Below are positions 3,992 through 40,680 of a stretch of 42,297 nt of DNA, piece by piece. The position numbers were made by a program, and so were the translations under genes. Numbering within the stretch: position 1 is the stretch's first letter; each line of letters begins with the position of its first letter. Below the pieces are notes generated by a model. That model had not been told where the DNA came from. It saw nothing but the letters and a program-made list of their open reading frames with translations, and did no database searches. Source of the stretch: a virus; UHGV virus genome UHGV-1359479; one strand, written 5' to 3'.

Positions 3992-4007
3992 TTTTGTGTT
4001 CCTCGAC

Positions 4008-4295
4008 TTAGCCGACCGTGATTATGTTATTGGCTGAAAAACGGTATTCGGCAGCATGGGCCTTGTCGGTCACCACAGCATCGATGCCGTCGAAGATCGC
4101 CTGGGATACGGCATGAGAGATGGCGGCTGCACTTATTGGGATGACACTCTTCTCCGCGTCCCACATGATGTAGTCCCTGATTCTGGCGATGAAGTTGTTG
4201 AGCACCGTCTCGTCGACGATCTCATCGTTTGGGTGCTCCTTCCTGAAGGCCTTGGCGGCATCGTCGGGGAGAGCGTAGGAAAGCATATAACGCAT
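4008..4295 (-). CDS. hypothetical protein, 95 aa, the first gene downstream of the putative PL
   Basis: ORF with an AAGAGG RBS. Confidence 0.5.
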   Translation of the reverse strand: MRYMLSYALPDDAAKAFRKEHPNDEIVDETVLNNFIARIRDYIMWDAEKSVIPISAAAISHAVSQAIFDGIDAVVTDKAHAAEYRFSANNIITVG

Positions 4296-4299
4296 GGGC

Positions 4300-4388
4300 G
4301 ATTTACCTCTTATATGTTCGTTGATTTCTTTTTATTAAAATTTAAATAAATAAGCAAGGAAAAGTTGAAGTTTTGGTAATTCGGGCAC
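4300..4388 (-). promoter_or_regulatory. putative leftward early promoter and operator region (PL/OL analogue)
   Basis: AT-rich intergenic DNA. It contains the 10-mer CCTTGCTTAT (minus sense, 4359..4350), which is also present at 5716-5725 in the cI/cro intergenic region. Confidence 0.35.
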
Positions 4389-4415
4389 AAAAAAAGGCCG
4401 ACGCTAGGCCGGCCC
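4389..4415 (-). terminator. rho-independent terminator ending the cI-moron transcript
   Basis: The GC hairpin GGGCCGGCC..GGCC is followed by a U7 run on the minus strand. It lies directly after the stop of the 4441..5067 gene. Confidence 0.5.
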
Positions 4416-4440
4416 AAAGTTTTGACGAAAAGCCTAAGGC

Positions 4441-5067
4441 TTATTTTGGACGCCCATCATAAAAATCCTGCAGGGCTCCGTCCCATACGCTCGTCGCTGA
4501 TCCCTGCGTCGTTAAGCACATCATCTCCATCTGGCCAAGCATACGATTTGCGGTTTCTCTTATCGCAGGGGGAAAGACTTCATCGTTCTCGCAAAAATAA
4601 TCAGGATGGTTCTCAACGAGGTATTCAATGCGAAAACTTTCTAGTTGATCATCTGCACGAGAATCATCATGGAATATTGTCGAATCATTAATAAGGCTAT
4701 TGTGGAGTTTTTCTTCTTTATTTCTTAAATAGTTTCTTCCAAAAATGATATATTCAAAATAGCTTTTTGCGTCATTTACAAAGTAAGAATCGATATACGG
4801 CATTTTGTATTTATTTAATGTATTTATTATTTTCTTTTTATAAATTTTCCACCAATAAAAATGACGCAGTAATTCTACAATAATTGCATTAGTTATTACA
4901 TATGAAAACACTATTTCTATAGAAAACAGAAGTATATGATATGCATCATCTGTGTGCGGCAAAATTCTAAAGTAGCTAAAGCAAAAAGAGACCAATAATA
5001 TACTAAATACTGGACCTAATAATATGCTGGCCAATAATCTTAGTGACGAAAACTTAGGCATAAACAC
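4441..5067 (-). CDS. AT-rich membrane protein, 208 aa, with two N-terminal TM helices and a roughly 140-aa soluble domain. It sits in the rexAB position downstream of cI and is a candidate superinfection-exclusion or abortive-infection protein.
   Basis: Markedly lower GC than the genome. It is co-oriented with the CI repressor and immediately downstream of it, and it has its own terminator. It shows no recognisable catalytic motif. Confidence 0.6.
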   Translation of the reverse strand: MFMPKFSSLRLLASILLGPVFSILLVSFCFSYFRILPHTDDAYHILLFSIEIVFSYVITNAIIVELLRHFYWWKIYKKKIINTLNKYKMPYIDSYFVNDAKSYFEYIIFGRNYLRNKEEKLHNSLINDSTIFHDDSRADDQLESFRIEYLVENHPDYFCENDEVFPPAIRETANRMLGQMEMMCLTTQGSATSVWDGALQDFYDGRPK

Positions 5068-5082: not shown

Positions 5083-5715
5083 TCACACCGTCTGCAACAC
5101 CCACACGACCTGCCCGAGAACTGTTTTCTCCTGCTCGGCTGGATTGACCCGGACGGGCTTGTATTTCGGATTATCCGAGCACAGCAGAAGGTCCCCGTCT
5201 TCAGACAGTTTCAGTCGCTTCACGACCCGGCCAAAATACGGAATGGACACCAAATAAATTCCACCCTCTGTGACATCCTCGGAGAGCGGTGCAATGCCAA
5301 CGATCGCCCCGTCCTTAATCGTCGGCTCCATCGAATTCCCCCGGACAGTCAAAGCCACCATATCATTTCTGTAAAACTGGGGAAGAATTCGGATGACGGT
5401 GTCAGCTGTACCGTACAGCTCCTGCGGAGCCCCTGCTCCAGTCTCACCCATAAGGGGAACGGCCGGCAGGGTGTCCTTTGCGCTGGAGATGTTCTTTTCT
5501 CCTCCAGGCCCATAAAAATTTTCAACGCCGAGAGCGTCGGCAATAGCACCAACATTGTCCAGGGACGGCGATTTGGTTGTTCCGTTGATTATCTGGCTGA
5601 GTGAGCTCTGACGGATGCCGGCCTGCTCGGCGAAAGCTGACTGCCACCCACGTTCCTGACTCCGCTGCTTTAGAAGTTGGAAAAATCGGTCTTTGAATTT
5701 CATTTTGGCCTCCAT
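5083..5715 (-). CDS. CI-like repressor with an N-terminal XRE HTH and a C-terminal LexA/S24 autopeptidase. The start may instead be MKFKD at 5703.
   Basis: The HTH segment is QIINGTTKSPSLDNVGAIADALG. The S24 motif is GNSMEPTI, with Lys in VKRLK. Confidence 0.8.
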   Translation of the reverse strand: MEAKMKFKDRFFQLLKQRSQERGWQSAFAEQAGIRQSSLSQIINGTTKSPSLDNVGAIADALGVENFYGPGGEKNISSAKDTLPAVPLMGETGAGAPQELYGTADTVIRILPQFYRNDMVALTVRGNSMEPTIKDGAIVGIAPLSEDVTEGGIYLVSIPYFGRVVKRLKLSEDGDLLLCSDNPKYKPVRVNPAEQEKTVLGQVVWVLQTV

Positions 5716-5802: not shown

Positions 5803-6030
5803 ATGGATGAAAAAACGCTAAGAGAAGCTCTTCGGGTGATGCTCGACAGTGGAGCCACTCAGCAGGAAATCGCCGACAAGGCCGGGCTATCCCAGAACTG
5901 CATCAGCCGGTTCCTGCACGGCACTAACGACATCTCGCTCTCGAGGGGTTTGAGATTAATGAAAGTTGTCTTGGAAGAACAAACGAAAAGTGTGGAGCCT
6001 CCGCCCAAGGAGGACTGCGATGCCCAGTGA
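5803..6030 (+). CDS. Cro-like HTH regulator, 75 aa
   Basis: The HTH segment is QQEIADKAGLSQNCISRFLHG. It is divergent from the CI-like repressor. Confidence 0.7.
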   Translation: MDEKTLREALRVMLDSGATQQEIADKAGLSQNCISRFLHGTNDISLSRGLRLMKVVLEEQTKSVEPPPKEDCDAQ

Positions 6031-6143: not shown

Positions 6144-6350
6144 ATGACCGATGACTACGAGATAGTCGACGTCTGGGAGTGTCTTGCGCCGCTCTCCATC
6201 TACGAGCGGGGCCTTGTCGTCACGGCAATAGCTGCGGTGGTGAACGGGAAGACGATGCCCCGTCTCACTGACGGAGCTGCGGAGGCCCTCGGGAAGATGT
6301 TCCCAGATGAGGATTTCTCGCAATATGTGGATAGAGGGAGGTTGCAATGA
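6144..6350 (+). CDS. hypothetical protein, 68 aa, in the cII position
   Basis: ORF with an ATGA overlap onto the following replication gene. Confidence 0.4.
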   Translation: MTDDYEIVDVWECLAPLSIYERGLVVTAIAAVVNGKTMPRLTDGAAEALGKMFPDEDFSQYVDRGRLQ

Positions 6351-7414
6351 AGCAGTGGTTCAAGCTGACGGATTCAGCCGTCATGAGTCTCAAGTGGCAG
6401 CGCATCGCCCGGAAGCTGGGTGTGTCTCCGGCCGTCGTGAGCTTCGTCTATGTGGCGGCCATGTCGAACGCATCCCAGTGCAATGACAGGGGGAGCCTGC
6501 AGGACTTCGACCCGGAAGACGTAGACTTCTACGGAAACTTCGAGGACGGGACCACATCCCGAGTCATAGATGCGCTTACAGCTGCCGGATTCATCGAGGA
6601 TGGCCGGATTGCTGGCTGGGAGGAGAGCCAGAGCCGCCCTTCTCAGGAAGAGGCGGACAGGATTCGCCTCCAGGCAGCGGAGCGCAAACGCCGTCAGAGG
6701 GCGAAGGAGCAGCCGGCTGAACAGCCCAGAGATGGTGACGCCGATGTCTGTGATGATGAGCCATGTCACGCTGTGTCCCACGATGTCACGCCATGTCACA
6801 CAACGTCACACCATGTCACGCCATGTCACGCTGTGTCCCACGATGTCACGCATACAGATCAGATCAGATCAGATCAGAACAGAACAGAAGATCTAAAACA
6901 CACCCCCCTTACCCCCCAGGGGGAGCAGGGTGTGGGTGAGGGAACTGCCGAGGATTGCTCTGACGTTCCCATGGCCGAGAGACGCCCCGTGAATACCGGT
7001 CTTCCCTCGAGGGGAGCTAATGCTTCGTGGTGGAGGGAGTTCGCCTCACTCTGGGATATCTGGCCTAACAAGCAGGGCAAGGATGCGGCATGGGCCGTGT
7101 ATCACGATCTGCGGCGCCGAAAAATCGACATGCCTCCCTTGTACGTCTTGCGTGACAAAGCATCGGCGATGATAGCCCAGGACCGGAAGTTTCTCGCAGG
7201 TTACGTTCCGGAGCTCAAGACATGGCTCAGGGAGCACCGATGGCACGATGAACCATGCCCTCCGAGGGACGTAGCCGTTCCCGGCAGAGGCAGAACCTCC
7301 AGAGAGCAGCAGATGGCCACAGATGTGGAGAGAGCGGCCGAGGCTGCCCGGCGGTTCGAGGATTTTTTTGAGATGGCCACTGATGAACCGGCGGCTGAAG
7401 GAGTGTTTGCATGA
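6347..7414 (+). CDS. replication initiator / replisome organiser A (lambda O-like), with internal iterons
   Basis: Its N-terminal domain is homologous to the paralogue at 9269..10321. Tandem DNA repeats inside the ORF encode a PCHAVSHDVT repeat. Confidence 0.65.
   Translation: MKQWFKLTDSAVMSLKWQRIARKLGVSPAVVSFVYVAAMSNASQCNDRGSLQDFDPEDVDFYGNFEDGTTSRVIDALTAAGFIEDGRIAGWEESQSRPSQEEADRIRLQAAERKRRQRAKEQPAEQPRDGDADVCDDEPCHAVSHDVTPCHTTSHHVTPCHAVSHDVTHTDQIRSDQNRTEDLKHTPLTPQGEQGVGEGTAEDCSDVPMAERRPVNTGLPSRGANASWWREFASLWDIWPNKQGKDAAWAVYHDLRRRKIDMPPLYVLRDKASAMIAQDRKFLAGYVPELKTWLREHRWHDEPCPPRDVAVPGRGRTSREQQMATDVERAAEAARRFEDFFEMATDEPAAEGVFA
6762..6850. repeat. iteron array A, about seven copies of (C/G)ATGTCACGC-like 10-11-mers
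   Basis: Direct repeats seen in the sequence, inside the initiator gene. Confidence 0.7.
6857..6893. repeat. cluster of five GATC sites within AGATC x4 and AGAAC x2 pentamer repeats, adjacent to the iterons
   Basis: The sequence reads CAGATCAGATCAGATCAGATCAGAACAGAACAGAAGATCT. Confidence 0.7.
6898..6942. repeat. conserved C6-TTA-C6-A-G5 element downstream of iteron array A
   Basis: The sequence ACACCCCCCTTACCCCCCAGGGGGAGCAGGGTGTGGGTGAGG is nearly identical at 9806-9848, although the flanking sequence has diverged. Confidence 0.55.
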
Positions 7415-7938
7415 GTGACGAGCAAACGAGAAAGACTTACGCAATCAGGGGCATGCTGGACGCCCTTGGGCGCAACATCAGTGTGGCAGGACTGAGCCTG
7501 TGGAGCATCGTCCTGCGGGACATCCCAGCGACGGTGGTAGAGCAGGGAGTCGTGCATTATCTCTCCTCGAGCGAGTCCGAGTATGCGACGCCGTCGAAGT
7601 TTAGGCAGTTTCTGCTGCGTATGCAGGGCAGGGGCATCCCCGACACCAAGGCCGCTGCTGCCCTGGAGTGGGAAAAGCTCATCAAGGCCATCACGGACTA
7701 CGGCTCGTACAACTGCCCTGAGCTCCCCGAAGCGACGGCCCGTGTCGTTGAGTCCATGGGCGGATGGGGAGCCGTTTGCCAGTGGACGACCCCGCAGCTC
7801 GAGTTCAAGAGACGCGAGTTCGTGGAGGCGTGGAGGGCCATCAGGGACTCCGAGGCGGAAGAGACAACAGCTCTGCCTGGTTCAACCTGCAGCACCGCCA
7901 TTCCCCGCCGCGGAGGTGAAGCATGCCTGCCTCGCTGA
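7411..7938 (+). CDS. hypothetical replication-module protein, 175 aa
   Basis: Translationally coupled between the initiator and SSB. Confidence 0.45.
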   Translation: MSDEQTRKTYAIRGMLDALGRNISVAGLSLWSIVLRDIPATVVEQGVVHYLSSSESEYATPSKFRQFLLRMQGRGIPDTKAAAALEWEKLIKAITDYGSYNCPELPEATARVVESMGGWGAVCQWTTPQLEFKRREFVEAWRAIRDSEAEETTALPGSTCSTAIPRRGGEACLPR

Positions 7939-8324
7939 ATGCTGTGCATCTCATCGGCCGACTCGGGCGCGACCCCGAGGCCTTCCACATTGGCCAGGAC
8001 ACCCTTGCCCGCTTCAACATCGCGACCGACGACGGCTACAAGTCATCTGATGGGCAGAGGGTCGAGCGAGTGACCTGGCACACCGTCACAGCCCACGGGG
8101 CCACGGCTAACTTTTGCCTCAAGTACCTTCATAAGGGCGAGCTCGTGTACGTGCAGGGGGCGTACATCTCTCGGAAGTACCGGACAAAGGACGGGAGAGA
8201 TGCCGTCGCATGGGGCGTGTCAGCATCGCGCGTGCAGTTCCTCGACGGCTCCGAACGGGGAGCCCAGAATCGGAACTGTCATGACCACCAGCAGGGAGGA
8301 TACGACGATGACTGGAGGAACTAA
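7923..8324 (+). CDS. ssb: single-stranded DNA-binding protein, copy 1
   Basis: Has an OB-fold SSB pattern (LIGRLGRDPE, ERVTWH, LHKGELVYVQG) and an acidic C-terminal tail ending DDDW. Confidence 0.8.
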   Translation: MPASLNAVHLIGRLGRDPEAFHIGQDTLARFNIATDDGYKSSDGQRVERVTWHTVTAHGATANFCLKYLHKGELVYVQGAYISRKYRTKDGRDAVAWGVSASRVQFLDGSERGAQNRNCHDHQQGGYDDDWRN

Positions 8325-8406
8325 GACTCCCACTCCCACAGAGCACGAGGAGCAGGCATCTCCAGCTATGTCATTAGACGGCGCTCATGATGAGGAAACC
8401 GAATGA
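8308..8406 (+). pseudogene. truncated remnant of a VRR-NUC gene marking a recombination junction
   Basis: The peptide MTGGTKTPTPTEHEEQAS matches the N-terminus of the intact VRR-NUC protein at 11480 (TSGKAPTPTEHEEQAA) and then diverges. Confidence 0.55.
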
Positions 8407-8687
8407 AAAGACTAGCCCGATACCGACTGAAGAACCCAGACTTCTATGCCGTCCAGTACGATGGCTTAAATGGGGAAGACTTGACGGCCGATCTGGTGCT
8501 CTTGGGGAATAAGCTGTTCGGATGGTGGGAGATCGAAGGCGAGATCGGGATGGAAACGGATAAGAACGCTTTGCATCTGAAGATAGGAGACTGGCTCGTA
8601 TGGAGTCCGACGGGCGAAACCAGAGTCTACGACGACGCGAAGTTCTCCGAGATCTTCGAGAAGACAACGCCGGAGACCCACCGATGA
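8403..8687 (+). CDS. hypothetical protein, 94 aa
   Basis: ORF overlapping the downstream gene start by 4 nt (ATGA). Confidence 0.4.
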   Translation: MKRLARYRLKNPDFYAVQYDGLNGEDLTADLVLLGNKLFGWWEIEGEIGMETDKNALHLKIGDWLVWSPTGETRVYDDAKFSEIFEKTTPETHR

Positions 8688-8962
8688 CCCCGCAATTTTC
8701 CAAGCACGCCCATGCCAGGCTGCAAAGCAGGCATGTCGACCCAGTCCTTGTCGCCAAAGCGCTGACAGACGGCATCGTCGTCAGTGAAACAACCGGGGCG
8801 ATCACCTTCAAGCGCAACCGGCTTTTTGTCGTCATGTCCCGTGACATGTCTACAGTCGTCACGGTCTACAAGCAGAGGAGATGCACGGTGAAGCGAGACA
8901 GAAGAGAGCGAAAAAAACAAAATCGCAGGCTGAAAAAACTCATGGGGGGCAAGCTGGCATGA
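8684..8962 (+). CDS. DUF4258-like small protein with a strongly basic C-terminal tail (toxin-like fold)
   Basis: The N-terminal FSKHAHARLQSRHV and the ...TVVTVYK pattern are typical of DUF4258. Confidence 0.45.
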   Translation: MTPQFSKHAHARLQSRHVDPVLVAKALTDGIVVSETTGAITFKRNRLFVVMSRDMSTVVTVYKQRRCTVKRDRRERKKQNRRLKKLMGGKLA

Positions 8963-9285
8963 GTGACGAGCACGGAAGCTTCATTATGTATACCGAGTCA
9001 TGGAGTGGCATACAGCTCCTGTCAAGGGAACAGCGGGGGGGGGACCTTCTCACTGCTCTGATGGTGTTCCATGGCGCCGATGACTGCGAGATGCCGGAGA
9101 TGGATCAGGCCACGGCATGTATCTTCGAGATGGTAAAGCGGAAAAACTCTTCATCCTGTTCACGGGACGAGAGAGTCCGCGAGCAGACGCGCGAACGCGT
9201 TCGTCGGTTCAGGGCAAGGAAGAAGGCGGCCGCCGCAGGGACATCAGAGACCATGGAGGAGGCGCATCATGCCGATGGCGTATAG
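8959..9285 (+). CDS. hypothetical protein, 108 aa, containing a G9 homopolymer at 9035-9043
   Basis: ORF overlapping the upstream gene by 4 nt (ATGA). The G9 tract encodes RGG. Confidence 0.4.
   Translation: MSDEHGSFIMYTESWSGIQLLSREQRGGDLLTALMVFHGADDCEMPEMDQATACIFEMVKRKNSSSCSRDERVREQTRERVRRFRARKKAAAAGTSETMEEAHHADGV
9035..9043 (+). repeat. G9 homopolymer inside the 8959..9285 ORF
   Basis: Seen in the sequence. Confidence 0.9.
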
Positions 9286-10321
9286 CTGGTTCCGAGTCTA
9301 CACAGGGACAGTAAATGACAAAAAATGGCCACGCATTGCCCGAGATGCTGGTCAGCCTGTCGGGTGTGTCGTGTCCGTGTGGCTGGCTCTTCTGGAGAGT
9401 GCATCATCTAATATAGATCGTGGGGCAGTTGACGACTTCTGCCCTGAGGATATCGACGCCCTCTACGGGTACGATGATGGCACGACGGAGAGCATCGTAC
9501 ATGCGATGCGAGACAGGGGGCTTATCTCTCCAGAGAACCGTCTGACTGCATGGGACAAGCGTCAGAATATCCCCACGGAAGATGCCCCCGAGGACCGCAG
9601 GGCATACAAGAGGGAGTGGGCCCGCAGGAAGAGAGAGGAGAGCCGGATGGCTGATTCTCCTGCTAGTGGACAGCCTGTAGACAGCTGTAGACAGCCTGTA
9701 GACAGCTGTGGACAGCCTGTAGACAGCTGTAGACAGCCTGTAGACAGCTGTAGACACGATAAAGAGAAGATAAGAGAAGATAAGATAAGAGAAGATAATA
9801 TAAATACACCCCCCTTATCCCCCCAGGGGGAAACGGGTGTGGGTGAAGCACCTTCTCCCAAAACTTCTTCCCCAAAAGAAGAAACCCCTAAGACCGGGGA
9901 AGAACCCCAGGCCGAAGACCCGGCACAAGACGTGAAGCCGAATCTCACTCACGGCAACCCCTGCTGGAAGGAGTTCTGCTACGTCTTTTCTCTCTGGCCC
10001 GTACAACAGGGCAAGGAGAAGGCGTGGAGGGAGTACGCCTACCTCAGGGCACGTCACCTCGTCCCTGAGTCCTACGCCCTTGCGGAGATCATCGAGCGCT
10101 TCAAGGCCGAGGATCGACGATGGAAGCGCGGCTACGTGCCAATGATGGCCAACTGGCTCCACGACCGGAGATGGGACGACGTACCGGAGAAAGCGCCGGC
10201 AAAGAGCTACGCCCCGGATGAGAACGGGTCCACGCCCTACGTGGACGAGCATGACCAAGATTACACGTCTTCGGGCTTTGGTTCGATTTTTGACTCGTTG
10301 AAGGAGAAAGCAAATGCGTAA
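9269..10321 (+). CDS. replication initiator / replisome organiser B, a paralogue of 6347..7414, with its own iterons
   Basis: Homologous N- and C-terminal segments. Internal tandem repeats encode QPVDSCR repeats. Confidence 0.65.
   Translation: MPMAYSWFRVYTGTVNDKKWPRIARDAGQPVGCVVSVWLALLESASSNIDRGAVDDFCPEDIDALYGYDDGTTESIVHAMRDRGLISPENRLTAWDKRQNIPTEDAPEDRRAYKREWARRKREESRMADSPASGQPVDSCRQPVDSCGQPVDSCRQPVDSCRHDKEKIREDKIREDNINTPPLSPQGETGVGEAPSPKTSSPKEETPKTGEEPQAEDPAQDVKPNLTHGNPCWKEFCYVFSLWPVQQGKEKAWREYAYLRARHLVPESYALAEIIERFKAEDRRWKRGYVPMMANWLHDRRWDDVPEKAPAKSYAPDENGSTPYVDEHDQDYTSSGFGSIFDSLKEKANA
9668..9756. repeat. iteron array B, four copies of a roughly 21-bp CAGCCTGTAGACAGCTGTAGA unit
   Basis: Direct repeats seen in the sequence, inside the gene. 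Confidence 0.7.
9757..9805. repeat. A-rich AGATAAGAGA-type short repeats (possible DNA-unwinding element), followed by the conserved C-tract element at 9806-9848
   Basis: The sequence reads GATAAAGAGAAGATAAGAGAAGATAAGATAAGAGAAGATAATATAAAT. Confidence 0.5.
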
Positions 10322-11108
10322 AATGGAAGCCCTTTTCCGGGCAAAGGATATGCGCCCGGCTATATGCCAGAGGCACGGAGAGTACATCTCGTACCTCCTC
10401 CCCTGCCAGCACAAAGAAATCTGGAGCCGGTGCCCCGAGTGTGAGAAAGAGCTTCAGCTCGAGAAGGATCTCCACGAAGAAGCCAACGCCCGCGCCGAGA
10501 TTGCTGCATGGCGCATTGAGCAGCTCATGGGTCAGGCCTGTATCCCGCCGAGATTCGCGAACCGGAGCTTTGAGAATTTCCGCACAGACGAGGACGACCA
10601 AAAAATGGCCCTCCGCGCATGCATGAGCTACGCCGTGACCGGATGGGAAGACACGATGAAAACCGGCCGGAGCCTCTGCATCCTCGGCCGCCCCGGTACA
10701 GGGAAAACGCACCTCGCCGCCGCGATGGTGCGATCCGTCATCAGCCGGGGGTTCCCCGCCGTGTACGTCAGGGAGGCGGACATCTTCCGCCGCATCAAGG
10801 AGACGTACATGTCGCGGACTGTGAGCGAACGGCAGGCCATGGCCGATTTCGTGAAGCCGGCCCTGCTCGTGATTGACGAGGTTGGCAGGCAGTACGGCAC
10901 GCCTGCGGAGCGCTTCATGTTTTTTGACGTCATTGACAGACGCTACGAGAACATGAAGCCAACGATTCTCATCTCGAACCTGGACAAGACCCATTTCCGC
11001 GAGCTGCTTGGCCTCTCTCTCTTCTCGCGCCTCGCAGAGGGCGGAGGGCAGCTTCTCGTCCTTGCTGGCAAGGATATGAGACTGGAGGCCAGTCATGGCG
11101 TCGCTTAA
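10314..11108 (+). CDS. DnaC/IstB-like AAA+ helicase loader with an N-terminal Cys-rich zinc ribbon
   Basis: Walker A is GRPGTGKTHLAAAM and Walker B is LLVIDEVG. Confidence 0.8.
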   Translation: MRKMEALFRAKDMRPAICQRHGEYISYLLPCQHKEIWSRCPECEKELQLEKDLHEEANARAEIAAWRIEQLMGQACIPPRFANRSFENFRTDEDDQKMALRACMSYAVTGWEDTMKTGRSLCILGRPGTGKTHLAAAMVRSVISRGFPAVYVREADIFRRIKETYMSRTVSERQAMADFVKPALLVIDEVGRQYGTPAERFMFFDVIDRRYENMKPTILISNLDKTHFRELLGLSLFSRLAEGGGQLLVLAGKDMRLEASHGVA

Positions 11109-11499
11109 CAACGTCACCCTCATCGGCCTCCTCGGTCGTGACCCTGAGGAGGTGCATGCAGGACAGAGCCGCTTCGCACGCCTCTCCGTGGCCACGGATG
11201 ACGGATACCGTGACCAGAACGGCCAGAAGGTGGAGCGTACCACCTGGCACTCCGTGGCTGTGAGCGGGAAGACGGCGGATTTCGTGCTCAGGTATCTGCA
11301 CAAGGGAAGTCAGGTCCTCGTGGAGGGCCGGTATCTGTCACGTAAGTACCAGACCAAGGACGGCCGAGACGCCGTGTCCTGGTACGTGCAGGCGCAGCGG
11401 GTGCAGTCCCTCGACTCCGCCCACCACGACGGACAGCAGGGCCAGAGACAGCAGGGGCACCAGCAGGGAGGCGGTTACGATGAGTCGTGGAAGTACTAG
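11095..11499 (+). CDS. ssb: single-stranded DNA-binding protein, copy 2
   Basis: Paralogue of 7923..8324, with an acidic C-terminal tail. Confidence 0.8.
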   Translation: MASLNNVTLIGLLGRDPEEVHAGQSRFARLSVATDDGYRDQNGQKVERTTWHSVAVSGKTADFVLRYLHKGSQVLVEGRYLSRKYQTKDGRDAVSWYVQAQRVQSLDSAHHDGQQGQRQQGHQQGGGYDESWKY

Positions 11500-11878
11500 C
11501 GGGAAGGCCCCCACCCCCACCGAGCACGAGGAGCAGGCCGCTCTCATCACATGGTGGAACATGTACGCTCAGGCGCGGCATATGCCGAACTTCCTGCTTA
11601 TGGCCATCCCCAACGGCGGCCACCGCACGACAGTGACAGGCGCAAGGCTCCATGCCGAGGGTGTGAGGGCCGGTATCCCAGACCTCTTCCTCGCTGTCGC
11701 CAGTGGGGAGTGGCACGGCCTCTGGATCGAAATGAAGCGCCGGAGAGGTGGCTTCCTGTCCGACCATCAGAGAACGGCTCTTCTGGCCCTGAAGCTCGAG
11801 GGATACTCCACGGCCGTATGCTACGGCTGGGATGAGGCCAGAGAAGCCATCGTAGATTATCTGGGGGACGAGAGATGA
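11480..11878 (+). CDS. VRR-NUC domain nuclease
   Basis: Shows TEHEEQAALI...IPNGG...GIPDL...IEMK...Q, the VRR-NUC signature. Confidence 0.65.
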   Translation: MSRGSTSGKAPTPTEHEEQAALITWWNMYAQARHMPNFLLMAIPNGGHRTTVTGARLHAEGVRAGIPDLFLAVASGEWHGLWIEMKRRRGGFLSDHQRTALLALKLEGYSTAVCYGWDEAREAIVDYLGDER

Positions 11879-12144
11879 TAAGCCGATCAAAAATCTGGAC
11901 TCCGGTGGCTGATATGATGCTCGCCGCTCTCTGTCTGTCGGGGACGCCGGCCTGCGACATCGCCAGAGCGCTGAACCGCTCCGAGAAGGAGTGCCGCAGG
12001 CGGGCGAAGGAACTCGGCACGGCAATGCCGCCCAAACCCAAGCCTTACAGCCCCTCTTTTACCTCCGACGAGGAAGACACGTTTCTCCCCGGGAGGGAAG
12101 ACTTCGCCGATGACCTGACGGAGGTGCTGCATGTGGACGCCTGA
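11875..12144 (+). CDS. GcrA-like HTH domain protein, small
   Basis: Has a W...G..IA..L.RS..EC.RRA..LG motif. Confidence 0.45.
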   Translation: MISRSKIWTPVADMMLAALCLSGTPACDIARALNRSEKECRRRAKELGTAMPPKPKPYSPSFTSDEEDTFLPGREDFADDLTEVLHVDA

Positions 12145-12706
12145 CCGTGACGCCGAGCTGCGCAGGATCGGAGTGGAGACGTATATCAGCCGGCACCCCG
12201 GAGCTGACGTGCACGAGGTGCTGGACCGCTACCTGCTCCTCCTTGACCCCGAGGGACGCGCCGCCCTGCTCAGGGAGAAGAACCGGGCCATCGAGACGGG
12301 GAAGTGGACGCCGCCGCGCCGGAAAACGGGGCCCAAGCCAGCCCCTCCCTGTCCCCCGAAGCCAGGCACAGTGCCGGCTGCCATCCGTACCGACAGTCCC
12401 CAGTGGCCGGCAGATACCGTCGAGAGACTAAAGACGATGCGCGCCAGAGGACTGACGGCCGCTGAGATCGCCGTCATCCTGGGGAAAACCGAGCCGGCCG
12501 TGGCCATGAAATGCGCCAAGCTCCATATCCCTTCCGCCGCTGGCCTTACGGCACAGGCATGGACTATGGAGCAGGTCCAGAGTCTTCGCGGCATGTACGG
12601 GCGGGGCTTCACGGCCCCGCAGATAGCGAAAGCCATGGGCCGGACGGTCAAATCTGTCTACGGAATGATGTACAGGCTCGGGCTTTCCAGAGACAGGAAG
12701 AGATGA
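12131..12706 (+). CDS. GcrA-like DNA-binding regulator with repeated W..L..G.TA.EIA..LG... modules
   Basis: WTMEQVQSLRGMYGRGFTAPQIAKAMGRTVKSVYGMMYRLGL matches the GcrA N-terminal domain. Two further degenerate copies are present. Confidence 0.55.
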   Translation: MWTPDRDAELRRIGVETYISRHPGADVHEVLDRYLLLLDPEGRAALLREKNRAIETGKWTPPRRKTGPKPAPPCPPKPGTVPAAIRTDSPQWPADTVERLKTMRARGLTAAEIAVILGKTEPAVAMKCAKLHIPSAAGLTAQAWTMEQVQSLRGMYGRGFTAPQIAKAMGRTVKSVYGMMYRLGLSRDRKR

Positions 12707-39859: not shown

Positions 39860-40325
39860 CATTCAGGATATGGAATCCGCGGCGGAGTCTTATCCGGCCG
39901 CGATGTTCGCTCATGACACGGTCTACCTGAAGATCATGAGTGACGGCACTGTCCGGGCTCTCGCCGATAAAGCCACGGTGAATGCTCCTGTAGAGTACGG
40001 CGGGGGCGGCGGCTCATACGATATGGAAATATCTACAGAAACATGGAAGGAAAGCGAATATACCGCCCGCGTCCGCAACGGGAAAATCGTCCTCGGGAAG
40101 ACTCAGGATGAGAAGCAGTCAGAGTGGGAAGCGGCCATCAGGGCGGAGCGGGATCGCCGTCTCCGCCTGTGCGACAAGATGTCCCCCATGCGCTGGAACG
40201 TCCTTACAGAGGAAGAGCGCGCTACGTGGGCGGCGTATCGTCAGGCGCTTCTCGATATCCCCGAGCAGGACGGGTTCCCGTGGGGCGGGGTGGTGGATAG
40301 CGCGCCATGGCCGGAGATCCCGTAA
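39846..40325 (+). CDS. tail fibre assembly chaperone (Caudo_TAP-like)
   Basis: The C-terminal pattern is RATWAAYRQALLDIPEQDGFPWGGVVDSAPWPEIP. Confidence 0.6.
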   Translation: MSINNIQDMESAAESYPAAMFAHDTVYLKIMSDGTVRALADKATVNAPVEYGGGGGSYDMEISTETWKESEYTARVRNGKIVLGKTQDEKQSEWEAAIRAERDRRLRLCDKMSPMRWNVLTEEERATWAAYRQALLDIPEQDGFPWGGVVDSAPWPEIP

Positions 40326-40333
40326 AACATAAA

Positions 40334-40364
40334 AGCCCTTTGGGGTATCCCAATGGGCTTTTTT
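40334..40364 (+). terminator. rho-independent terminator of the rightward late transcript
   Basis: The hairpin GCCCTTTGGGG..CCCAATGGGC is followed by T6. Confidence 0.6.
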
Positions 40365-40403
40365 ATAAAAAATTCCCCGGCAGAAGTGCGTGACCTCTGC
40401 CGG
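40365..40403 (-). terminator. rho-independent terminator of the leftward transcript, convergent with the plus-strand terminator
   Basis: A hairpin with an 8-bp stem, CCGGCAGA/TCTGCCGG (40377-40403), is followed on the minus strand by a U-rich run. Confidence 0.5.
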
Positions 40404-40470
40404 GCTGTGCGGCGGTCTCTCCGGTCTGCACCTGACGCTTGGTGCATCGTGGTGCAAAATTTTGTTTAAG

Positions 40471-40680
40471 TTACTGAATTAATTTAAAAGTCCATGCTCC
40501 ACTGCGGATGAGGGCCGCCGCACTCTCAGCAGATATCGTTTTTCTGCGGACAGGTCTACGGGTGGCAGTCACCTCGAGGATGTCGTCCTGCCTGGCTTCG
40601 AGGCGTTCAATGGCCTTCTTGTGCTCGATAATCTCCAACCGGATTTTCCGCAGCTCGGTAATTTCACTCACTCCGTCCAT
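40471..40680 (-). CDS. hypothetical small protein, ~69 aa, with an internal start of a longer ORF
   Basis: The start is coupled to the upstream gene stop. Confidence 0.35.
   Translation of the reverse strand: MDGVSEITELRKIRLEIIEHKKAIERLEARQDDILEVTATRRPVRRKTISAESAAALIRSGAWTFKLIQ

Follow-up and report, generated by a model that had tools for sequence, protein, structure and literature searches.

Two lambda-O/P-type replication modules with different iterons and loader genes in tandem in a gut siphovirus, a probable product of out-of-register recombination

UHGV-1359479 is the genome of a temperate-type siphovirus from the gut, and the stretch analyzed here (the window) comprises all of its 42,297 nucleotides (nt). 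It harbors two replication modules in tandem, module A (6347-8357) with the initiator RepA and module B (9269-11878) with the initiator RepB. We regard it as probable that the virus is a recombinant of two related phages, called X and Y below, which carries the lambda-O/P-style module of each, and we have high confidence in this origin, as one out-of-register illegitimate crossover between two such phages explains the whole structure. The modules belong to a rightward operon (6144-12706), in which the genes from orf68 to orf191 start with ATG and overlap the next gene by 4-20 nt. Family assignments were made with Pfam, PHROGs and NCBIfam; relatives, designated by L numbers, are contigs from IMG/VR and from metagenomes. 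The coordinates of all features are compiled in Table 1.

RepA and RepB align at 32% identity (E = 6e-49): their N domains are 36% and their C domains 41% identical, and the middle parts, which are encoded by repeat arrays, are unrelated. An initial annotation, made from the DNA letters alone, had described two paralogous initiator modules with different iterons, whose initiators share terminal domains around unrelated, iteron-encoded linkers. This description is borne out by pairwise alignment of DNA and protein, in which the homology of the initiators is real and not limited to the fold of the single-stranded DNA-binding proteins (SSB-A and SSB-B, 63% identity). Both initiators match PHROG 9474, 3729 and 270 only ("replication initiation protein," E = 7e-14 to 1e-15). 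Curated initiator families such as Pfam Phage_rep_O and Phage_rep_org_N did not match at E <= 0.01 in Pfam or NCBIfam, and a comparison with PDB sequences returned nothing meaningful; by tblastn, the initiators are 31-46% identical to the N-terminal parts of annotated O or replisome-organiser proteins.

Within each initiator gene, iterons, an A-rich pentamer tract and a GC-rich core follow one another in the same order, and an iteron array inside the open reading frame (ORF) of the initiator was also found in eight relatives. The nine units of origin A keep an exact 10-nt phase; eight match TGTCMCRC, and one reads CGTCACAC. Across the genome this motif has 11 matches, compared to 6.0 expected, of which eight are clustered at origin A. 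Origin B consists of eight exact GTRGACAGC units and one variant at alternating 10/11-nt spacing, and its repeat occurs nine times in the genome versus 0.59 expected, a number reached in none of 100 shuffles. The two kinds of iterons are unrelated, and neither is present in the other origin. The adjoining tracts have an A+T content of 65% (origin A) and 79% (origin B), compared to 43% for the genome (57% GC). The core, ACACCCCCCTTA(T)CCCCCCAGGGGG..GGGTGTGGGTG, is invariant across ten initiator variants that are otherwise 32-89% identical. Here, even synonymous positions do not vary (a single codon is used for each of P, P, Q and G in 10/10 sequences), whereas 33 of the 39 invariant residues outside the core use at least two codons in the same ten sequences, which argues for a constraint on the DNA itself.

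The core pattern CACCCCCCTTACCCCCCAGGGGG also occurs, together with other iterons and at a much lower flanking GC content, inside initiator genes of other families (L020, L027, L028, L031, L033, and L038). Their products are not detectably similar to RepA or RepB, the best match being a short stretch at E = 0.002. The pattern was further encountered in a GC-rich contig (L029 and L034, around position 4595), within the longest open frame around it (463 codons), the C-terminal part of which is DnaC-like (30% identity); this context is unlike all others.

Both modules have single-copy counterparts in other phages, and the search for single-module ancestors proposed with the initial annotation succeeded for each of them. 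The A-type order, cI-cro-(orf68)-initiator-DUF6475-SSB-intact VRR-NUC with no DnaC-like gene, is found in L005, L006, L042, L043, and L045-L048, and the DNA of L042 is 91% identical to window positions 6253-8357. The B-type order, cI-cro-orf92-DUF6291 fragment-RepB-DnaC-SSB-VRR-NUC, is found in L007, L008, L009, L016, and L017 at 83-98% protein identity, and L010-L013 carry B-type variants; at the DNA level, module B is 90-92.5% identical to L008 and L009. Judged by these gene orders, each type apparently suffices as the only replication module of a phage. Every relative with a captured replication region has one module, none of the other related loci examined has two, and a scan of IMG/VR for the origin core returned 21 contigs with one core each (21/21), in agreement with the annotation of the tandem arrangement as unusual.

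The relatives also decide how the two modules came together. An in-place tandem duplication of one ancestral module with subsequent divergence would account for the common gene order (initiator-loader-SSB-VRR-NUC) and for the paralogy of the modules, which had been annotated as "duplicated, diverged." However, each module is 82-100% identical to single-copy modules elsewhere, compared to 32% (initiators) to 63% (SSBs) to its partner, and the modules were therefore brought together by recombination and not duplicated in place. Moreover, the loader genes belong to unrelated protein families, and the junction fuses VRR-NUC to a cro-like gene instead of a copy of itself. In-place duplication is thus already refuted by the single-module relatives, and we give it practically no credence.

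The joint between the modules can be placed to the base. Homology between the modules at the DNA level (7950-8357 versus 11119-11538, 65.6%) stops at 8357, where the alignment of every A-type relative to the window ends as well. The window equals X-like sequence (L042, L006, and L005) through ...GAGCACGAGGAGCAGGC and Y-like sequence (L019) from GGAGCAGGCATCTCCAGCTATGTCA... (8349) onward, and the overlap of the two matches is the 9-nt microhomology GGAGCAGGC at 8349-8357; the annotated precise junction inside VRR-NUC is hence real. The donor context is provided by L018 and L019, in which orf94 directly follows an 89-amino-acid (aa) cro-like helix-turn-helix (HTH) gene that faces a cI-like repressor. 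These two metagenome contigs are the ones that carry orf94, of which no relatives were found in IMG/VR. Three-way comparison of the window with both parental types identifies the short ORF at the joint as chimeric, with codons 1-17 from VRR-NUC and the final 15 from the cro-like gene of the donor. As annotated, this stub matches the intact VRR-NUC and then breaks, but it is 32 and not 33 aa long; the VRR_NUC domain comprises residues 58-116 of the intact protein and is consequently absent from the stub. The two parts are fused in frame, and the chimera terminates in the ATGA overlap that the donor gene has with orf94, so that translational coupling is kept across the joint. The gene content of the modules had been recognized correctly, whereas the incoming segment begins at 8358 and not at 9269: in addition to module B, it brings orf94, orf92 and a DUF6291 fragment, and the gain relative to phage X amounts to ~3.2 kb (8358-11538).

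The tandem arrangement is very unlikely to be an artifact of assembly. The contig is complete and circular, with an assembled length of 42,416 nt (42,297 + 119) that fits a circular overlap at k = 119. Relatives with a single module (L005, L006, and L026) were recovered from the window's own sample, 3300045988; parental types can thus co-occur, and an assembler might in principle have fused two such phages into a chimera. However, the joint offers an overlap of 9 nt, while a de Bruijn join at k = 119 would need 118 nt, and a contig assembled separately from an independent sample (ERZ28568400, SAMN02333979) is 100% identical over 11,761 nt across both modules. On these two grounds a chimeric contig has a negligible probability. 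The copy of the window in ENA differs at 1 nt; near-identical copies of the dual-module genome, 0-1 nt apart, hence exist in at least two samples.

In both modules, a gene that appears to encode a helicase loader lies directly downstream of the initiator gene and is matched to the C domain of that initiator. In ten out of ten initiators, the type of C domain predicts the downstream loader gene: A-type C domains (87-100% identity) are accompanied by DUF6475 in 3/3 cases (RepA of the window, L005, and L006), and B-type C domains (86-100% identity) by DnaC in 7/7. Two hybrids separate this partnership from the rest of the initiator: L012 combines an A-type N domain and A iterons with a B-type C domain and DnaC, and L006 combines a B-like N domain and iterons of its own with an A-type C domain and DUF6475. 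The N domain in turn goes with the iterons, as A-type N domains occur with TGTCACGC in 3/3 and B-type N domains with GTAGACAGC in 4/4 cases. The loader of module B is a 264-aa protein that matches the NCBIfam DnaC model at E = 7e-32, which is below the equivalog cut-off.

The DUF6475 protein of module A belongs to a family that has no function annotated and forms ~500 clusters at 50% identity. It is the only loader candidate in the captured stretch of L005, L006, L042, L043, and L046-L048, which read initiator-DUF6475-SSB with no DnaC-like gene. Sequence searches detected no homology to known loaders: the protein matches only DUF6475 and PHROG 10105 and 9804, all of unknown function, and no PDB sequence. 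A structural model built from 46 diverse members is confident and all-helical, with a predicted local distance difference test (pLDDT) score of 88.9. Its best Foldseek matches in PDB are the lambda P chains of a DnaB-P complex (9oa1; probability 0.89, template modelling scores 0.49/0.45, weak E = 0.34); a first, poor model from seven near-identical sequences (pLDDT 62) likewise had lambda P as its top match. Overall, the model finds its best structural matches in two helicase loaders of phages, lambda P and SPP1 G39P, with weak scores. Taken together, these fold scores, the position of the gene and its covariation with the C domain are best read as pointing to a candidate non-ATPase helicase loader of the lambda-P/G39P kind. 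If this reading holds, both modules possess an initiator, a loader and an SSB.

In the resulting reconstruction, phage X had the order cI-cro-orf68-RepA-DUF6475-SSB-VRR-NUC and phage Y the order cI-cro-orf94-orf92-DUF6291 fragment-RepB-DnaC-SSB-VRR-NUC, and strands of both were joined at the 9-nt microhomology between codon 17 of the VRR-NUC gene of X and the 3' end of the cro-like gene of Y. The entire module A of X was thereby retained upstream of the entire early operon of Y. Most likely, a single transcript would then cover both modules upon derepression. Each initiator would bind the about nine helically phased iterons in its own gene and open the adjacent A-rich tract beside the invariant GC-rich core, and its C-terminal domain would recruit its own loader (the lambda-P/G39P-like DUF6475 protein for RepA, the DnaC-like AAA+ protein for RepB) to deliver the DnaB helicase of the host; a helicase encoded by the phage itself was not detected. 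The outcome would be two independent, non-cross-reacting origins with two helicase-loading routes. Either module should suffice, because each type is the sole replication module in relatives. That both origins are active is plausible, with chances a little better than even, and we consider the tandem, most likely, to be an intermediate of recent recombination that is tolerated and may provide redundancy, and not a dedicated lytic/plasmid pair.

Several observations weigh against this account. The assignment of DUF6475 as a loader draws on a weak structural score (Foldseek E = 0.34) with no sequence homology, and on context. As to the parents, only relatives with 89-100% identity to the respective half were recovered, and not the true ones. 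An unusually stable hairpin at the origin core was considered and rejected, as shuffled sequence gives a fold energy that is at least as good. In L010 (7822-8811), an N domain that is only 59% identical to the A type is combined with a B-type basic linker and B-type iterons; N-domain type is therefore an imperfect predictor of iteron type, and iteron specificity may not reside solely within the first 100 residues. Finally, the available copies are so close to each other that an unused module has had no time to decay, and intact ORFs are therefore no proof of maintenance by selection.

The last point bears on the possibility that just one module is used, most likely module B, the one that came in together with the genes downstream, and otherwise module A, and that the other is a neutral leftover of a very recent recombination and will be lost. 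The near-identity of the known copies gives no sign of selection for both modules, no other related locus examined shows such a tandem, and the genome of 42.3 kb exceeds the IMG/VR contigs with related initiators (38.2-40.5 kb). However, both initiators, loaders, SSBs and iteron arrays are intact, ribosome-binding sites and coupled start codons are present throughout, the in-frame junction keeps the coupling via the stub, and the clone has reached two samples or more. A passenger module is thus a possibility to be taken seriously, but a doubtful one. It is less likely still, though conceivable, that the dual module is adaptive: two non-cross-reacting origins and two loading routes (lambda-P/G39P-like and DnaC-like) might let an integrase-less temperate phage replicate in hosts, or next to resident prophages and defenses, that block one of the routes, or might allow an episomal state. 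If this were true, the virus would be a natural dual-replicon phage.

A special role of the second origin is so far unsupported. The initial annotation had proposed that one origin serves lytic replication and the other maintains a plasmid prophage, compensating for the missing integrase in the way of oriL and oriR of P1. The integrase is indeed missing. Six relatives (L011, L016, L017, L022, L039, and L040) carry one in the order RecT-374 aa-89 aa-168 aa-xis-like-integrase. The window keeps these genes up to the xis-like 69-aa gene (40471-40680), from which 145 nt lead to the end of the tail genes at 40325, and the integrase is absent from 40326-40470, the spot where the six relatives have it (L016 956-2144 was compared). 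The loss is specific to the dual-module genome. No integrase family and no partition family (ParA/ParB or other) was found in the ORFs checked, with ORFs of the structural region scanned in part. It is speculative that the loss offsets the 3.2 kb gained, which would fit a capsid-limited genome with an HNH-TerS-TerL arrangement that suggests cos packaging.

A division of labor would be consistent with the retained cI-like repressor and xis-like gene next to the lost integrase, and with a contig that assembles as a circle. There is a precedent in P1, whose two replicons are of different kinds, separately placed and separately regulated, and which has a partition system and a plasmid lifestyle. 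Two-replicon phage-plasmids comprise P1, with oriR/RepA and oriL/RepL, and crAssphage has been proposed as another, with two repL genes (PMC10983915). The window resembles them in that a single phage genome has two initiators, two origins and no integrase. However, its replicons are of the same lambda-O kind, each is the sole module of relatives (the B type even in the integrated, integrase-carrying prophage L016), and both share one operon of overlapping genes behind cro, an operon that the repressor would presumably shut off in a lysogen. A scan for promoter-like sites on the + strand between the modules, which is a weak test, found none. Moreover, a circular assembly is equally expected from concatemers or cos ends, and a missing integrase alone does not make a plasmid prophage. 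The proposed lytic/plasmid split is therefore improbable.

Among known systems, the layout is closest to that of lambda, whose initiator gene contains iterons, then an A/T-rich tract and then a GC-rich inverted repeat, and whose O protein is matched by its C-terminal part to P. In the window, both initiator genes contain these three elements in the same order, the loader gene is directly downstream and matched to the C domain of the initiator, and the modules stand in an operon that is led by cro and subject to a cI-type repressor. Proteins of Escherichia coli phages that are annotated as "replication protein O" share 36% identity with the N domain of RepB. In contrast to lambda, with its four 19-bp iterons, each origin of the window has about nine iterons of 10-11 nt, no Pfam Phage_rep_O or replisome-organiser domain was detected, and two modules with different iterons and different loader families stand in tandem. 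SPP1 also has two origins, oriL and oriR, the first of which lies inside the initiator gene, as well as a small non-ATPase loader, G39P, but these origins are ~13 kb apart and share the same repeats and a single initiator, G38P (PMC6316719). The window differs by its two initiators and its unrelated iterons 2.9 kb apart, each initiator having its own loader and SSB, and SPP1 brings its own helicase.

Mosaicism of lambdoid phages reportedly arises by illegitimate recombination with novel joints at short microhomologies between related phages (the Hendrix/Juhala model). Whole functional modules are exchanged, and the model predicts duplications and gene fragments wherever joins are out of register. 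Mosaicism is thought to result from rare, sloppy recombination and selection, and untrimmed intermediates are seldom seen. While such intermediates are usually inferred, the window is an untrimmed, base-resolved product with two complete replication systems, and close relatives of both parental forms exist. It might serve as a natural test case for whether two lambda-type origins with different specificities and loaders can coexist and fire in one phage. As by-products, the comparison provides a functional hypothesis for DUF6475, namely that its members are helicase loaders matched to the C domain of the initiator, and an invariant origin core that marks the swap point of initiator halves between families. 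The literature, the coverage of which was incomplete, yielded no account of heterologous O-type modules in tandem in a single phage; this is weak evidence of novelty.

The role of the core as an exchange point is apparent from an older scar within the incoming segment. Many homologues of the C-terminal half of RepB bear a DUF6291 N-terminal domain instead (P0087, P0091, and the full-length P0103), and in L049 and L050 a full-length DUF6291 protein of 304 aa is the only initiator. Its gene has about four copies of a repeat of its own (AAAACCTCAAGG-type) and shares the core, and its partner is DnaC. Similarity of the window to L050 extends over 8671-9127 (93%) and resumes at 9801 (89%); positions 9128-9800, which hold the N domain of RepB, the linker, the iterons and the A-rich tract, stand in place of 229 nt of L050. 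This comparison identifies the 108-aa DUF6291 ORF as what is left of the N-terminus of a third type of initiator. The remnant is common to L007-L009 and L016 and therefore older than the join of modules A and B. The right-hand boundary of the older swap is the origin core, and the core also occurs in the unrelated initiators of L020, L027, L028, L031, L033, and L038; it thus marks the exchange point of initiator halves, at which N-terminal/iteron halves and C-terminal halves are swapped.

Table 1. Features of the replication region and of the integrase site in UHGV-1359479.
Feature	Position	Strand	Basis or remark
cI-like repressor (HTH_3 + Peptidase_S24)	5083..5715	-	Pfam; divergent from replication operon
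cro-like HTH gene, first of rightward operon	5803..6030	+	ORF; weak HTH-family NCBIfam matches; 100% identity to L012 copy
orf68	6144..6350	+	4-nt overlap (ATGA) with RepA start; kept beside A-type initiators in L005, L012
RepA, module A initiator, 355 aa, putative origin A within gene	6347..7414	+	PHROG 9474, 3729, 270; 85% identity to sole initiator of L005, L042, L043
Origin A iterons, 9 x 10-nt, consensus TGTCACGC	6764..6851	+	Repeat search
Origin A A-rich tract (CAGAT)n, 65% A+T, presumed unwinding element	6852..6899	+	
Origin A invariant GC-rich core ACACCCCCCTTACCCCCCAGGGGG...GGGTGTGGGTG	6900..6938	+	Invariant in 10 initiator variants including synonymous sites
DUF6475 protein, 175 aa, candidate non-ATPase helicase loader of module A	7411..7938	+	
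SSB-A	7923..8324	+	Pfam SSB E = 1e-22; 100% aa identity to SSB of L042, L043, L044
Chimeric 32-aa stub	8308..8406	+	VRR-NUC codons 1-17 + last 15 codons of donor cro-like gene, in frame
Recombination junction, 9-nt microhomology GGAGCAGGC	8349..8357	.	Window versus L042 versus L019; present in both parental types
orf94, first complete incoming gene	8403..8687	+	93% / 89% identity to L018 / L019, directly after cro there
orf92, weak DUF4258 match	8684..8962	+	Kept upstream of B-type and DUF6291-type initiators
DUF6291 fragment, 108 aa, remnant N-terminus of third initiator type	8959..9285	+	Pfam DUF6291; older scar 9127/9128
RepB, module B initiator, 350 aa, putative origin B within gene	9269..10321	+	83-84% identity to sole initiator of L007, L008, L009, L016
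Origin B iterons, 9 units, 10/11-nt spacing, consensus GTAGACAGC	9666..9758	+	Repeat search
Origin B A-rich tract (AAGAT)n, 79% A+T	9759..9805	+	
Origin B invariant GC-rich core	9806..9845	+	One extra T versus origin A
DnaC/IstB-like AAA+ helicase loader of module B, 264 aa	10314..11108	+	Pfam IstB_IS21 E = 1.4e-21; PHROG 50 "DnaC-like helicase loader" E = 1e-63
SSB-B	11095..11499	+	Pfam SSB E = 2e-24
Intact VRR-NUC nuclease, 132 aa	11480..11878	+	Pfam VRR_NUC E = 5.7e-8; PHROG 824; PHROG 5702 "Holliday junction resolvase"
Site of missing integrase; xis-like 69-aa gene (40471-40680) kept	40326..40680	-	No integrase between xis-like gene and tail genes

TerL of the phage is at most 47% identical to that of Burkholderia, Ralstonia and enterobacterial phages. 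Searched by blastn against 50,697 GenBank phages, the region had no match, and nothing was found in GTDB genomes scanned with the initiator alignment and with the origin-core pattern. Next to the repressor gene lies an island of low GC content (4001-5067; 41% compared to 57% for the genome) with a minus-strand ORF of 208 aa. Its product has a hydrophobic N-terminus and matches no family; the island looks like a recently acquired moron, e.g., an exclusion or defense gene.

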